Shown here piece after piece: positions 20,085 through 30,521 of a stretch of 64,000 nucleotides of DNA. Position 1 is the stretch's first letter. Each line of letters begins with the position of its first letter. The stretch spans positions 1,039-65,038 of the IMG/VR virus record IMGVR_UViG_3300037502_000519; one strand, written 5' to 3'. Origin of the DNA: a virus (Duplodnaviria > Caudoviricetes). The notes under the pieces are model-generated. The model was not told the DNA's origin and did no database searches. It worked only from the letters and a program-made list of their open reading frames with translations. A program made the position numbers and the translations under genes.

Positions 20085-20386
20085 TAATAGGTTTTTTTGC
20101 CCTGGCTCTGCCGAGGCATTTTAGGTTTTTTGCGACCCTACCCCAGGGTGGCCCCCCAATTGTGTGACGGTGCAGCGGCGCGGCAAGAACAGTGTTTCGC
20201 AACCACGCTCCACACTTTGTCAAATTTCTATCCAATACCGCTGCGCAAATCCCCCTTGCCAATCACCGGCAAAAATCCACCCCACCCCCTCGTCCCACGC
20301 TAAATACAGCAAAGGAGGAAACGCCAATGCTAAAAATATTTGTAAAAATAAAAATAGTTATTGTCAAATCTTTGACAAAGTAGCTT

Positions 20387-20429
20387 AAAAAAATCCCCCG
20401 GAGCAGTAGAGGGGGTAGCTCGACGGGGG
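20387..20429 (-). terminator. Intrinsic terminator with no protein gene upstream on this strand
   Basis: CCCCCG-UC-GAGC / GCUC-CGGGGG stem followed by AUUUUUUU. Confidence 0.65.
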
Positions 20430-20488
20430 GAAGACTGAGCGCACTCAGCCGAAGGAGAGACAACATGAAGCCCCTTGCGAGACCACAC
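20387..20488 (-). ncRNA. Candidate small regulatory RNA with anti-SD/anti-AUG seed
   Basis: TTGTAC-16-TATACT promoter (20522-20495); GNRA hairpin; unpaired UCAUGUUGUCUCUCCUUC; second hairpin; GC stem plus U7 terminator. Confidence 0.55.
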
Positions 20489-20546
20489 GCCTAGAGTATA
20501 CACTCACCCCCACTAGGTACAACCCTATGCTTCGGGAGACCCCCGC

Positions 20547-22655: not shown

Positions 22656-25145
22656 ATGGCGGTCGAGAAAAGTCTGTACCAAGCCCCCCGTGGGATTATC
22701 GAAGACGTAGAAGATACGTTGGGCGAACCGGATATTGAGATTGAGATCGAAGACCCGGAAGAAGTAAAGATCCGCGCTGGTGGTCTGGAGATTGAAATCG
22801 AGCCAGAAGAAGAGGCAGATTTTTATACCAATCTGGCAGAAGAGATTAGTGAAGATGACCTTCAGCTTATTGGTAGTGAACTGCTAGAAGATATTAAAAG
22901 TGACCTCGACTCCCGCAAAGACTGGGAGAAGACGTACAAAGAAGGTCTGACGCTGCTTGGGTTGCAGTACGAGGAAAGAACAGAACCGTGGGACGGCGCG
23001 TGTGGCGTGTTCCACCCCATGATTACAGAAGCCGTTGTGCGCTTCCAGTCCGAAACAATCATGGAGACATTCCCTGCCCAGGGACCGGTGAAGACAAAGA
23101 TTCTGGGTAAAGAGACGCGGGAGAAAGAAGATGCTGCCGCGCGGGTCAAACACGACATGAACTACGAGTTAACCGAGCGCATGCCGGAGTTTCGTACCGA
23201 GCACGAGCGGATGTTGTGGAACCTGCCAGCTACCGGGTCTGCGTTTAAGAAGGTGTATTACGATCCGTCGCTCCAGCGTCAGACATCGATCTTTGTGCCT
23301 GCCGAAGATGTGATCGTGCCCTACGGCGCGGCGTCTCTAAATACTGCGGAGCGTGCGACGCACCGTATGTATAAGACCAAAAATGAGATTCGCAAGCTCC
23401 AGGTGGCTGGGTTCTATCGGGACATCGAGCTTGGCGATCCGCCGAAAACAAAGAACGAGATACAAGAGAAGAAAGACAAAGAGACTGGCATCAACAGTCT
23501 GAACGATGATCGGTTCCTGCTGTATGAATCCCACGTCAACTTGGATCTGGAAGGGTACGAAGACGAGGAAGATGGCGAGCCGACAGGCATAGCCATACCG
23601 TATGTAGTCACAATACTGGCGCATACAGGCGATGTATTGTCCATACGGCGTAACTTCTACGAAGATGACGAGACAAAAGAGAAGCGCGATCACTTCGTTC
23701 ACTACGTCTACATCCCTGGGTTTGGGTTCTATGGGTTCGGTCTCTTCCACCTGATTGGTGGATTTGCCAAGTCGGCAACGTCGATCATTCGGCAGTTGGT
23801 GGACGCCGGTACGTTATCGAACCTTCCTGGTGGTCTGAAGGCTAGGGGCTTGCGGATCAAAGGCGACGACACGCCGATTGCTCCGGGCGAGTTCCGAGAT
23901 GTAGATATTGGTTCTGGTGCGCTGCGGGATAACATTCTGCCCCTGCCGTACAAGGAGCCGAGTGCCACGTTGTATCAGTTGCTTGGCACAATTGTGGAAG
24001 AAGGCCGACGGTTTGCCGCAACGGCAGACATGAAGATCTCCGACATGAGTGCGCAGGCACCGGTCGGTACGACGCTTGCCCTCTTGGAGCGCATGCTCAA
24101 GGTGATGTCGGCTGTTCAGGCGCGCGTGCACTACGCGTTCAAGCAAGAGTTGCAGTTGTTGGCAAACATCATCCGTGACTACACCGACGATACGTATGAC
24201 TACGACCCGGTAGAAGGCACGCGGCAGGCGAAGAAGGCTGACTACGACATGGTGGAGATTATCCCCGTGTCAGACCCCAATGCCGCCACGATGTCTCAGC
24301 GGGTTGTGCAGTATCAAGCAGTGATCCAGTTGTCACAGACTGCGCCACAGATCTACAACCTGCCCGAGTTGCATCGCCAGATGTTAGAAGTGCTGGGGAT
24401 CAAGAACGCTGCCAAGCTGGTGCCGGTGGAAGATGATCAGAAACCCACAGATCCTGTCACGGAGAACATGGAAGTGATGAAGGGCAAACCTGTGAAGGCG
24501 TTCATATATCAGGACCACGATGCCCACATCGCCGTACATACTGCTGCACTGCAAGATCCACAGATGGCAGCGCTCATGGGGCAGAACCCCAAGGCACAGA
24601 TGATGTTTGCTGCGATGCAAGCACATATTGCCGAGCACGCAGGGTTCGCATATCGCCGTCAGATCGAAGAGCAGTTGGGTATACCGTTGCCCTCGCCTGA
24701 AGATGAGATGCCCAAAGAGCTTGAGTTGCAGGTCTCGCGTCTTACGGCAGAAGCCGCCAAGCGTGTGTTGGCAAACAACCAGGCTAAAGCTGCGCAGCAA
24801 CAAGCCCAACAGCAGGCACAAGATCCGCTCATCCAGATGCAGCAGCAAGAGTTGGCGCTTAAACAGGCAGAAATCCAACGCAAAGCCCAGAAAGATATGG
24901 TCGATGCGCAGACAAAACAGGCAGAACTTGCGATTAAAGAGAAGGAACTCATCGTCAACGCCACGGCAAAAGTCGATGAGATGGAGCTTAAAAACCGTGA
25001 ACTCTTGGCGCGTACAGCCCAAGCTGTTGACGAGCTATCGTTAAAAGGCGAGCTAGAAGGTATGAAGCTCGGTACATCTGTCGCACAAAGCCGTGCGCAA
25101 ATGCGTCAACAAAGCAGTAAACCCCAAGGAGGTAACACCCAGTGA
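22656..25145 (+). CDS. Portal protein (P22-like)
   Basis: Follows terL; 829 aa; GSAFKKVYYD and FYGFG motifs; Q-rich coiled-coil C-terminus. Confidence 0.85.
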   Translation: MAVEKSLYQAPRGIIEDVEDTLGEPDIEIEIEDPEEVKIRAGGLEIEIEPEEEADFYTNLAEEISEDDLQLIGSELLEDIKSDLDSRKDWEKTYKEGLTLLGLQYEERTEPWDGACGVFHPMITEAVVRFQSETIMETFPAQGPVKTKILGKETREKEDAAARVKHDMNYELTERMPEFRTEHERMLWNLPATGSAFKKVYYDPSLQRQTSIFVPAEDVIVPYGAASLNTAERATHRMYKTKNEIRKLQVAGFYRDIELGDPPKTKNEIQEKKDKETGINSLNDDRFLLYESHVNLDLEGYEDEEDGEPTGIAIPYVVTILAHTGDVLSIRRNFYEDDETKEKRDHFVHYVYIPGFGFYGFGLFHLIGGFAKSATSIIRQLVDAGTLSNLPGGLKARGLRIKGDDTPIAPGEFRDVDIGSGALRDNILPLPYKEPSATLYQLLGTIVEEGRRFAATADMKISDMSAQAPVGTTLALLERMLKVMSAVQARVHYAFKQELQLLANIIRDYTDDTYDYDPVEGTRQAKKADYDMVEIIPVSDPNAATMSQRVVQYQAVIQLSQTAPQIYNLPELHRQMLEVLGIKNAAKLVPVEDDQKPTDPVTENMEVMKGKPVKAFIYQDHDAHIAVHTAALQDPQMAALMGQNPKAQMMFAAMQAHIAEHAGFAYRRQIEEQLGIPLPSPEDEMPKELELQVSRLTAEAAKRVLANNQAKAAQQQAQQQAQDPLIQMQQQELALKQAEIQRKAQKDMVDAQTKQAELAIKEKELIVNATAKVDEMELKNRELLARTAQAVDELSLKGELEGMKLGTSVAQSRAQMRQQSSKPQGGNTQ

Positions 25146-27814: not shown

Positions 27815-28723
27815 ATGGCTATTTCACGCGCCCAACTACTCAAGGAACTCCTGCCCGGTCTGAACGCATTGTTCGGTCTTGAATATGCTCGTTATGGCGA
27901 AGAGCATAAGGAGATTTACGAAACCGAAACCTCCGAGCGTTCGTTTGAAGAGGAAACCAAACTGTCTGGCTTCTCCGCCGCCCCGGTGAAGAACGAAGGC
28001 AGTGCGATTGCCTACGATAACGCGCAAGAGGCTTTTACATCGCGCTACACGCACGAGACCATTGCCCTTGGCTTCTCCGTTACGGAAGAGGCCATCGAGG
28101 ACAACCTGTACGACAGCCTGTCGTCCCGGTATACCAAGGCTCTGGCCCGTGCTATGGCGTACACCAAGCAAGTCAAGGCTGCTTCGGTTCTGAACAACGG
28201 CTTTAGCTCGTCCTACCCCGGTGGTGACGGTGTTGCCCTGTTCGATACCCAGCACCCCCTGATTTCTGGTGGTGTAAACTCCAACGAGCCTGCTACTCCG
28301 GCTGACCTGAACGAGACTTCTCTTGAAGCCGCCGTTATTCAGATCGCCGCGTGGACGGATGAGCGTGGTCTCCTGATCGCTGCTCGCCCCCGCAAGCTGA
28401 TTATTCCTCCTGCGCTGCAATTCGTTGCAACCCGTCTGTTGGAAACGGAACTCCGTACCGCTACGGCTGACAACGACATTAACGCCATTCGGAATAATGG
28501 CTCGATCCCCGAGGGTTATGCCATTAACCACTTCCTGACCGACCCGGATGCCTGGTTCCTCACCACGGACGTTCCTAACGGTCTGAAGCACTTTGTGCGT
28601 ACGCCGATGCAGACGTCAATGGATGGTGACTTCGATACAGGCAACGTACGTTACAAAGCTCGTGAGCGGTACAGCTTTGGCTGGAGTGACCCTCTCGGTA
28701 TGTTTGGATCTCCTGGCGCTTAA
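27815..28723 (+). CDS. Major capsid protein
   Basis: Strong SD AAGGAG; MAISRAQL.KEL.PGLNALFG...YKARERYSFG.SD pattern; followed by a terminator. Confidence 0.88.
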   Translation: MAISRAQLLKELLPGLNALFGLEYARYGEEHKEIYETETSERSFEEETKLSGFSAAPVKNEGSAIAYDNAQEAFTSRYTHETIALGFSVTEEAIEDNLYDSLSSRYTKALARAMAYTKQVKAASVLNNGFSSSYPGGDGVALFDTQHPLISGGVNSNEPATPADLNETSLEAAVIQIAAWTDERGLLIAARPRKLIIPPALQFVATRLLETELRTATADNDINAIRNNGSIPEGYAINHFLTDPDAWFLTTDVPNGLKHFVRTPMQTSMDGDFDTGNVRYKARERYSFGWSDPLGMFGSPGA

Positions 28724-28755
28724 GCCTTATAAATCAAGCCTTTGGGCTAGATTGG

Positions 28756-28780
28756 AACCCCGCCTTGCGCGGGGTTTTTT
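28756..28780 (+). terminator. Intrinsic terminator after MCP
   Basis: AACCCCGC-CTTGC-GCGGGGTT followed by a T run. Confidence 0.85.
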
Positions 28781-28822
28781 ATTGTTGTATGATTTCCCGT
28801 ATCGTAACCAAAGGAGGAAATC

Positions 28823-29431
28823 ATGGAGTATCCAAAGAACCGCGCAGAGGCAAAAGCACAAGGTGCAACGCACTACTTCACAGGCTTGCCATGCTCTAGG
28901 GGGCATATAGCCTTACGCAAAACCAAGGGTGTATGCGTTGAGTGCATGAAGGAAGACTGGGTAGTAGATAACGAGAAGCGTAAGGAGAAGCCGAAGTCTG
29001 AAGCGGCTAGGGCCGCAGGGAGACGCTACTACCAGAAGAATCGTGAGGCTGTTATTGCGCGCGCGGCAGCTAGACCTTCTGAAGAAAGACAAAAAGCGCG
29101 GAACAGACATAAAGCCGCCAACCCAGAACTTTACAAAGCGCTAACCAGCGTGCGTAAACGGCGTCATAGAAACGCCACACCGTCTTGGGTCGGTGCTGCT
29201 GAGAAAAAAGCTATTCGCCAGCTATACCTAGAAGCGCAGAGACTTACCAGACTTACTGGCGAACGCTACGTGGTGGACCACATTTACCCGTTAATCAGCG
29301 AAGAGGTTTGTGGGCTACACGTTTTAAAGAATTTGCGGGTGATGACGCAAGCCGAAAACTTAGCCAAGTCCAACAAAATGCCGGATCTGCTAGAGACGTG
29401 GAAACACCTTGACGCCCCCACAAATACCTGA
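28823..29431 (+). CDS. Free-standing HNH endonuclease
   Basis: YFTG.PC..GH...CVEC N-terminal domain; VDHIYPL...CGLH...NL......N..K.N. Confidence 0.85.
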   Translation: MEYPKNRAEAKAQGATHYFTGLPCSRGHIALRKTKGVCVECMKEDWVVDNEKRKEKPKSEAARAAGRRYYQKNREAVIARAAARPSEERQKARNRHKAANPELYKALTSVRKRRHRNATPSWVGAAEKKAIRQLYLEAQRLTRLTGERYVVDHIYPLISEEVCGLHVLKNLRVMTQAENLAKSNKMPDLLETWKHLDAPTNT

Positions 29432-29437
29432 TACAAA
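29409..29437 (+). promoter_or_regulatory. sigma70-type promoter
   Basis: TTGACG, 17 bp spacer, TACAAA with TG extended -10. Confidence 0.5.
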
Positions 29438-29443
29438 GAGAAC

Positions 29444-29532
29444 AAGTCTAGGATTTTTACTCATATCGACTGACCTAGCAGACTTAGTAGAGACGATATG
29501 GGGATGTGCTACTACACAAGGAGTCTCTAATG
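29444..29532 (+). ncRNA. Candidate structured 5' leader RNA (double pseudoknot)
   Basis: 9-bp stem 29460-68/29494-502; CUAGG/CCUAG and UAGUAG/CUACUA cross-pairings. Confidence 0.55.
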
Positions 29533-29949
29533 GCACGTACGACCTTTAATGGCCCAGTCGTATCCCAAAACGGGTTTATTGACGGGCACCAAGTTGAATC
29601 CGCCAACGCAATTAACGCAACTGCTACTGCCACACCGGCTCAAGTTGCTTCTGGCTACATCACTTCTACTTCTGCTTCGGCAACCACTATTACGCTTCCC
29701 ACAGGTACGGATCTTGGTAGCGCTATCGGTGCAACTAAAGGTACGGTTCTTGACCTTTACATCGACAACACTGGTGGATCAAGCACGGTAACTATTGCGG
29801 TAAACACCAATGCTATTCTTTCTACCGCCGCTGCTGACACCGCTGGTTCGTTTGGTGATCTGACAGTTGCGTCCGGTGCTACTGGCCTTGCGCGTTACAC
29901 GCTGATGTTCTCTAGCCCCACGGCATACGTCTTCACGCGTACCGCTTAA
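29530..29949 (+). CDS. Probable virion structural protein (MARTTFNGPV...)
   Basis: SD AAGGAG before ATG 29530; T/A/S-rich. Confidence 0.7.
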   Translation: MARTTFNGPVVSQNGFIDGHQVESANAINATATATPAQVASGYITSTSASATTITLPTGTDLGSAIGATKGTVLDLYIDNTGGSSTVTIAVNTNAILSTAAADTAGSFGDLTVASGATGLARYTLMFSSPTAYVFTRTA

Positions 29950-29962
29950 TTAGGAGGCTCAA

Positions 29963-30274
29963 ATGCCTACTATGCAATATGACGTACTAGCGACTAAGCC
30001 GCTAGAGTCAACCGGTAACTTTTTAGACCAAAACAACAATGCCATTCAACGGTCGCGGATTAAGACTATCTATGCTGTTAATGGCGCTAGTGCTGGGTCT
30101 GTGGTTATTCGTGAAGGCGGTGCTAGTGGAAAAATCCTTATAACGGTCAATACCGCTGCTAGTACAACCGCTGGTTACACGATTATCCCGATGCCCGGCG
30201 AAGGTATTCTGTGCGAGTCTGGTCTGCACGGTACTGTCACCAACACCACTTCGATGACTCTGATCTATGGCTAA
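29963..30274 (+). CDS. Hypothetical structural protein
   Basis: SD AGGAGG; PGEGILC motif. Confidence 0.65.
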   Translation: MPTMQYDVLATKPLESTGNFLDQNNNAIQRSRIKTIYAVNGASAGSVVIREGGASGKILITVNTAASTTAGYTIIPMPGEGILCESGLHGTVTNTTSMTLIYG

Positions 30275-30521
30275 GACTCCAGCATGGCAGCGTAAAGAGG
30301 GCAAGAACCCTAAAGGGGGTCTTAACGCCAAGGGCCGAGCTTCTTATAACGCTGCCAACCCTGGAAAGCCGGGGTTAAAAGCCCCGCAGCCTGAAGGCGG
30401 TCCTAGGCGGGATTCGTTCTGTGCCCGTATGAAAGGCATGAAGAAGAAGCTGACATCTGCCAAGACAGCTAAAGATCCGAACTCTCGTATCAATAAATCG
30501 TTGAGAGCATGGAACTGCTAA
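30267..30521 (+). CDS. Small basic conserved phage protein (DUF6321-like)
   Basis: AW.RKEGK...GGLN.KGR...SFCARM...DPNSR....L..W.C. Confidence 0.75.
   Translation: MAKTPAWQRKEGKNPKGGLNAKGRASYNAANPGKPGLKAPQPEGGPRRDSFCARMKGMKKKLTSAKTAKDPNSRINKSLRAWNC

Follow-up and report, generated by a model that had tools for sequence, protein, structure and literature searches.

The window, by which we mean the whole stretch of DNA analysed here, comprises 64 kb out of a 65,038-bp record of an uncultured virus. It carries a portal gene (22656-25145; phrog_1216) and, downstream of it, the gene of a Mu gpT-like major capsid protein (MCP; 27815..28723, plus strand), which was assigned by Pfam matches to Phage_capsid_4 (1.5e-14) and Mu-like_gpT (1.1e-10); a PDB sequence search with the MCP returned no match. 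The capsid gene is followed by a terminator-like hairpin with a T run (28754..28778, plus strand; 10 pairs, 6 of them G-C), and behind this lies an HNH/endonuclease VII-like homing endonuclease gene on the same strand (28823..29431; phrog_1035, 4.4e-16, and phrog_26577). After a gap of 98 nt, a further plus-strand gene (29530..29949) encodes a 139-aa protein starting with MARTTFNGPV. The RNA leader described below occupies this gap, downstream of a plus-strand promoter (29409..29437) with a -35 box TTGACG (29409-14), a 17-nt spacer and a -10 box TACAAA (29432-37). Further along, at 30267-30521, the window encodes an 84-aa DUF6321 protein (1.3e-19), whose PHROGs matches fall at the C-termini of far longer proteins.

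Pfam and PDB sequence searches with the 139-aa protein returned no match. Its homologue in phage DSL-LC04 is annotated as a cement protein, and an AF2 model (mean pLDDT 66, with residues 1-22 disordered) gave as its best PDB fold match the capsid spike of Pseudomonas phage Pa223 (9ny6_C; E 3.5e-4, TMq 0.47). Judged from this model, it is reasonable to regard the product as a virion surface protein of a cement- or spike-like kind. Metagenome proteins included 3,993 relatives of the window's version.

The first-pass annotation had placed a compact double-pseudoknot RNA leader between the promoter and the ribosome-binding site (RBS) of this virion gene. Direct reading of the plus strand located every helix that it had drawn at the positions given for it. 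P1 consists of 9 bp, including one U-G pair, between CUCAUAUCG (29460-68) and CGAUAUGGG (29494-502). P2 pairs CUG (29470-72) with CAG (29479-81); between its strands stand an A and then the loop CCUAG (29474-78), which can pair with CUAGG (29448-52) as PK1. The junction block at 29482-29493 is made up of ACU, the strand UAGUAG (29485-90) and AGA. UAGUAG forms PK2 with CUACUA (29509-14), and this partner is the entire loop of P3, a hairpin of UGUG (29505-08) and CACA (29515-18). The Shine-Dalgarno (SD) sequence AAGGAG (29518-23) abuts P3 and is followed on its 3' side by the AUG of the surface-protein gene at 29530. In the proposed fold, as read from the sequence, the SD stays single-stranded and outside both pseudoknots. 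Nested folding, which is blind to pseudoknots, gave a minimum free energy of -21.9 kcal/mol (z = -0.97). Equally good folds arose from 38 of 200 shuffled sequences, and the folding energy carries no signal.

The element is widespread among uncultured phages. Its 23-nt core occurs exactly in at least 119 IMG/VR contigs, whose flanks show 75 distinct variants among the matches listed. Three variant scans, in each of which one core position was forced to change while its pairing partner was left unconstrained, added 57, 18 and 9 elements (84 in total), giving 203 contigs as a lower bound. A blastn search of 50,697 GenBank phage records matched phage DSL-LC04 (OR003939) alone, the three other matches having E values of 0.8 or more. 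The capsid-gene region of this phage is 68.6% identical to the window at the nucleotide level. Its element lies between the capsid terminator and the 'cement protein' gene with no endonuclease gene in the interval, and its 25-nt core is identical to that of the window while P1 differs by two double changes. Among 185,579 species genomes, the element was present in two MAG contigs alone (1,485 and 1,164 nt), and these revealed neither a host nor a prophage. The element model R1 detected no element in Pag-Yong1, HTVC027P, 023Pt_psg01, CRP-901 or QDWS535. Each of 100 loci contained exactly one copy, as does the window. In the contigs of RNA run X19, three short contigs covered 29454-29517; the depth of DNA runs peaks there too, because relatives share the core, and this coverage is no sign of expression, of transcript ends or of cleavage.

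In 115 of 120 loci the element is preceded by an MCP homologue, and the remaining five hold 146 nt or less of upstream sequence. GC hairpins equivalent to the capsid terminator precede the element in most relatives. On the 3' side, 92 of 100 distinct loci have their first GGA or GAG, taken as the SD, 0-4 nt after P3, and 97 of 98 have the AUG 6-15 nt after it. The downstream ORF was readable in 86 of 100 loci. These ORFs, of 62-246 aa, fall into at least eight mutually unalignable clusters, and what they have in common is an N-terminal arm of about 16-19 residues of the MAxTTFxGPV type, represented in one cluster by MAxSTTQSIW. From this pattern, the conserved arm looks like an anchor on which the exposed domain has been exchanged.

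To assess conservation and covariation of the helices, we aligned 100 loci to the element model, which gave 95 distinct rows; this set includes the window and omits 10 of 109 distinct loci (L009, L015, L036, L058, L068, L086, L110, L116, L195 and L199). Alignment A1 omits L020, L039 and L096. Across the 95 rows, 97.7% of pairing cells were paired as against 87.5% in shuffles, a value reached by 0 of 500 shuffles, with the caveat that cell counts are inflated by relatedness among the sequences. Sliding the helix partners against each other dropped pairing to 14-50% in the same rows. P1 showed two-sided changes at 9/9 pairs (64 canonical sequences; 95 rows). In the 95 rows, PK1 showed them at 3/5 pairs with 100% of cells paired, PK2 at 2/6 pairs with 98.9% of cells paired, and P3 at 3/4 pairs; within the 64 canonical sequences, P3 changed from GUG/CAC to GCG/CGC in five. 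P2 (CUG/CAG) did not vary across the 95 rows.

The variant scans extended this pattern to the pseudoknots and to P2. The unconstrained partner carried the matching change in 55/55 hairpin-bearing loci for PK2, in 17/17 with upstream sequence for PK1 and in 9/9 for P2. The PK2 scan retrieved 59 loci with an altered third base of UAGUAG, of which two were coding-sequence false positives. The P3 hairpin was present in 54 of these variant loci and in one more that ends at the contig end, and all 55 loops were exact complements of the altered strand; the combinations were UAUUAG/CUAAUA (27), UAAUAG/CUAUUA (25) and UUAUAG/CUAUAA (2). Two further loci depart from the scheme. L134 (3863-3941) has no P3, and its UUACAC pairs with GUGUAG, a partner that overlaps the SD; L145 (4665-4753) has AACCCA as its PK2 strand, and the sole visible partner is a UGGG at the start codon, which is not a clear one. 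The PK1 scan gave 20 loci with an altered third loop base, 18 of them elements. In the 17 of these with upstream sequence the 5' strand matched in every case (CUGGG with CCCAG in 14 loci, CCGAG with CUCGG in three). The loose P2-variant pattern matched 70 loci, of which 61 were false positives in coding sequence and nine were elements; P2 reads CCG/CGG in all nine, but one of them, L271, has PK1 changed on one side only and is a counter-example. L144, L160, L188 and L193 were likewise coding-sequence false positives of loose patterns. Independent covariation events are few: PK1 shows two variant types, PK2 three and P2 a single one.

Taken together, all five helices show compensating changes upstream of homologous genes, and the leader drawn in the first-pass annotation is borne out as a conserved structure. 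Within the helices, G-U pairs outnumber A-C mismatches by 50 to 7, which indicates selection on the plus-strand RNA. A nested core helix suggested by RNAalifold was rejected: it showed no two-sided change, was broken in 25 and 11 of the 95 rows, and the variants that break it leave both pseudoknots intact.

The unpaired junction proved even less tolerant of change. Among IMG/VR contigs, none had a changed middle base of ACU in an otherwise canonical core, and none had a changed middle base of AGA, as against at least 119 canonical loci. By this comparison of sequences, the two junction positions tested, both unpaired, vary less than the bases in the helices. The first-pass annotation had also drawn a mutually exclusive helix, UAGAGAC (29488-94) with GUCUCUA (29523-29), that would cover the spacer between SD and AUG. 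This helix exists in the window, but six or more of its Watson-Crick pairs could form in only 1 of the 95 relatives; it is private to the window, and the switch that it implied is therefore unsupported.

The promoter proved real and conserved. In agreement with the TTGACG-17-TACAAA reading of the window, 21 of 100 distinct loci carry a TTGACR-N16-18-TAnAMM sequence at a distance of 5-11 nt from PK1 on its 5' side, among them loci without an inserted ORF (L196, L198, L200 and L207). A simple promoter scan of 28500-30500 found none, its rule demanding a T at the final -10 position; TACAAA lacks this T and was missed, and the promoter was called from its conservation instead. The pattern TTGACN17-19TANAAW occurred twice in the window against 0.71 expected, and 17 of 100 shuffles reached two, so that the promoter is not significant from the window alone. 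The other loci carry different upstream sequences. A TAnnnT box stands exactly 6-8 nt before PK1 in 50/100 and at 9-11 nt in 10/100, a GC hairpin without a -10 box ends 4-11 nt before PK1 in 14/100, and the arrangement is unclear in 5/100. In 37 of the 50 loci with the box at 6-8 nt (class A), a TTG-containing -35-like box lies 16-18 nt further up, within the terminator loop.

From these positions, the transcript of the window would start near 29444, about 4 nt 5' of PK1, and in 71/100 loci the predicted start coincides with PK1 or lies no more than a few bases from it. The terminator loop reads TTGCAA, TTACAA or TTGAAA in many relatives (e.g. L001:3419-3456), and such loops stand 16-18 nt before the TAnnnT box, itself 7 nt before the RNA. 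Terminator and next promoter thus appear, from their sequences, to be overlaid in many relatives. The 14/100 hairpin loci without a -10 box point to read-through from the capsid gene, in which case the 5' strand of PK1 would be internal to the message. The only other promoter-like site of the form TTGACA-N17-TACAAA in the window lies on the minus strand at 20339-20367 and adjoins 20387-20522. A duplex between the element and 20387-20522 scored -59.4 against a 1st percentile of -58.6 for random windows, but this duplex is long and filled with loops, and we draw no conclusion from it.

Genes of two unrelated families of homing endonucleases have inserted between the capsid terminator and the leader promoter, which marks this interval as an insertion hotspot. 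HNH/endonuclease VII-like insertions occur in the window and in L006, L017, L018, L028, L098 and L197 (2710-3315), and GIY-YIG insertions with NUMOD3 in L117 (3874-4854) and L191 (4034-4768), with a weak GIY-YIG match in L194 (4096-4869). In 8 of 120 loci an endonuclease homologue separates the MCP gene from the element, and 112 have none; the inserted gene at 28823..29431 does not belong to the RNA element. The inserted ORFs all terminate within the promoter, their tail ..LDT.. corresponding to TTGACA. The invariant RNA core may be the cleavage target of these endonucleases, and compensated core variants might be escape alleles.

We then compared the element with described RNA classes. The first-pass annotation had been unable to match it to hammerhead, twister, pistol, HDV or familiar riboswitch consensus sequences, and this held: Rfam 15 returned no family match, and a search of 28800-30200 of the window at E <=10 yielded noise alone (Alpha_RBS, RF00140, at 12.3 bits and E 6.4 against a cut-off of 38). 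Models of hammerhead, twister, twister-sister, pistol, hatchet and HDV-like ribozymes did not match the element, nor did the Rfam riboswitch models, and the sole alternative helix proposed is the one found in 1/95 relatives. The model of the Mu-gpT-DE motif, RF03012, had no match in the same interval at E <=10, and none in L001, L129, L134, L155 and L197 at E <=1. The same search detected RF03012 in Roseobacter phage CRP-901 (L125:2499-2551) at 72.3 bits against a gathering cut-off of 49, which makes the negative result on this element meaningful. Neither this element nor RF03012 was found in Pag-Yong1, HTVC027P, 023Pt_psg01 or QDWS535.

The Mu-gpT-DE of CRP-901 nevertheless occupies the same slot, between the terminator of the homologous capsid gene and the homologous next gene. 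The order there is terminator, TTGTTGTACTGT, 7 nt, a 53-nt motif ending in GGAGAUCAACAUG, and a gene starting MATSTFSGPIK. As here, a TTGTTGTA-type box lies 7 nt upstream of the motif, and the 3' end reads GGAG...AUG. Mu-gpT-DE is described as lying directly downstream of a Mu gpT-like capsid gene, which is also the position of this element, and the 3' end of its model consensus runs into the SD and AUG, as the element does. The two share the string ACUGAC..UAGC..AGAC, and common descent is possible. In marked contrast, Mu-gpT-DE measures 53 nt and is a single bulged hairpin in Rfam, whereas this element spans about 80 nt and comprises five helices, two of which are pseudoknots. Given the different size and architecture and the lack of an RF03012 score, we do not count the element as a member of that family but as a separate variant within an already known niche. 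Of the novelty first claimed for it, the part concerning the fold, which Rfam does not match, stands, while the niche was already occupied by the described Mu-gpT-DE.

The main text of Weinberg 2017 (PMC5737381) does not contain 'gpT', and the accessible part of PMC10611076 does not mention this RNA. According to the accessible part of PMC10690425, its supplements hold 8,495 IMG/VR candidates, and this element may be among these unnamed ones. Its core strings were absent from phage paper text, and other string matches resembled primers or unrelated sequence. Rfam types Mu-gpT-DE as 'sRNA' of unknown function; ending in an SD and a start codon, the CRP-901 copy looks like an mRNA leader and not a free sRNA. 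The element of the window is best described as a member of a widespread, uncatalogued family of mRNA leaders of about 80 nt.

Compact pseudoknots 5' of an RBS are known from the leaders of T4 gene 32, the E. coli alpha operon (S4) and rpsO (S15), and such pseudoknotted operators act via protein binding, 30S docking or both. The present leader differs from them in that the controlled gene encodes a virion surface protein and not a nucleic-acid-binding one, and in that the alpha-operon model stays well below its cut-off here. The leader very probably sets the amount of surface protein produced, and we think that it would do so as a cis-acting fold beside the RBS that controls translation or stability of the surface-gene message. 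With the SD free and no conserved fold to cover it, no on/off mechanism is visible.

The reading that we prefer, to which we give a probability of roughly 45%, is that a fold at the edge of the RBS is recognised by a conserved partner and doses a protein needed in capsid-matched amounts, with the 5' end of the message hidden from decay as a by-product. In this mechanism, the leader would be transcribed from its own promoter, TTGACG-17-TACAAA, with a start near 29444. P1 would close the junction, the P2 loop would pair with the extreme 5' end through PK1, and the junction strand would pair with the whole P3 loop through PK2, leaving P3 to end at the SD. The resulting rigid, sequence-specific body would sit against the RBS on its 5' side, would act in cis and post-transcriptionally, and would be recognised either by the 30S platform or by a conserved phage protein, so that translation is set for the surface protein. 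Within this scheme the helices, their conservation and position, and the promoter, dedicated and conserved in most lineages, are observed, while we infer where transcription starts, what recognises the fold, whether the effect is positive or negative, and that the 5' end is shielded. With regard to the partner, no match was found for a phage S21, and none for phage RegA, though in the latter case the control was likewise without a match anywhere.

The same fold could instead serve purely as a constitutive protector, in which the knot buries the transcript 5' end and blocks decay by RppH and RNase E or by RNase J-type enzymes, with no partner involved. The xrRNAs of flaviviruses and plant viruses have one pseudoknot that ties the 5' end into the core and a second that joins the junction to a 3' hairpin loop, and in eukaryotic viruses xrRNAs block 5'-end-dependent decay. 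Here, too, the 5' end is pseudoknotted, a likeness drawn from sequence alone and in a bacterial system, and no Rfam xrRNA model matches. PK1 uses the first predicted transcript bases in 71/100 loci (classes A and B), the SD is free with no conserved switch, and a demanding three-dimensional fold alone could explain the invariant junction bases. Yet a simple 5' hairpin would suffice for protection, the constant spacing of 0-4 nt to the SD would not be needed, and in the 14/100 loci without a promoter the 5' strand of PK1 is internal. We therefore regard protection as the sole function as possible but unlikely. A related and quite doubtful proposal, read from the invariance of the sequence, is that the junction within the two covarying pseudoknots forms an active site and not a docking surface, which would make the element either a new small catalytic phage RNA that cleaves itself at its 5' edge and so releases the surface-protein message, or an xrRNA-like, decay-resistant one.

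Invariant unpaired bases between covarying helices, in a compact pseudoknotted fold with the SD adjoining, are also what a riboswitch would show, with the junction binding a small molecule or ion and altering initiation at the neighbouring RBS. Small H-type pseudoknot leaders of this kind are known as preQ1-II, SAM-II/V and guanidine-III, and their 3' strand reaches the RBS. Unlike in SD-sequestering riboswitches, however, the SD lies outside the pseudoknot here, save in the P3-less L134. Neither an expression platform nor an alternative fold has been conserved, no Rfam riboswitch matches, and a ligand is implausible, since a virion surface gene is the sole controlled gene and suggests no obvious metabolite signal. 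Such a role is improbable.

About equally improbable is a self-cleaving ribozyme of a new class, which would cut at or near the 5' edge and split the capsid message from the downstream one. A double pseudoknot with an invariant core would suit it, as would the irrelevance of the upstream context, which may be terminator, promoter or homing-endonuclease gene, and the terminator hairpin that abuts the element in 14 loci. Against it, a promoter already sets the 5' end in 71/100 loci, the Rfam ribozyme models have no match at E <=10, and the helix order, as we read the topology, is unlike that of HDV. A put-like nascent-RNA antiterminator, modifying RNA polymerase as it enters the post-capsid operon, would fit an element that has a promoter directly upstream and a long same-strand run of late genes downstream, but it does not explain why the element keeps so constant a contact with the SD and AUG of a single gene, and nothing in Rfam matches, and we consider it very improbable. 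That the core is conserved merely as DNA, a homing-endonuclease or recombination target in which RNA pairing is incidental, is scarcely credible despite the two unrelated endonuclease families at one upstream site, given the compensating changes in five helices, the 50 G-U against 7 A-C pairs, P1 strands that are hypervariable though they flank the core nearer the insertion site, and the 112/120 loci without an endonuclease.

If dosing by an RBS-edge fold is correct, a lineage of abundant uncultured phages would set the amount of a capsid-surface protein through a dedicated promoter and a rigid, doubly knotted leader, while the outer domain of the dosed protein is swapped freely among at least eight unrelated versions. 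With Mu-gpT-DE in the same slot, an orphan Rfam motif would gain a testable job as a leader. Small and self-contained at about 80 nt, with natural compensatory variants for each helix and an invariant junction, the RNA is suited to structure determination; it is equally suited to ribosome- or protein-binding assays and could be used as a portable RBS insulator. The locus is also an example of two unrelated homing-endonuclease families that invade beside an invariant RNA-coding site.
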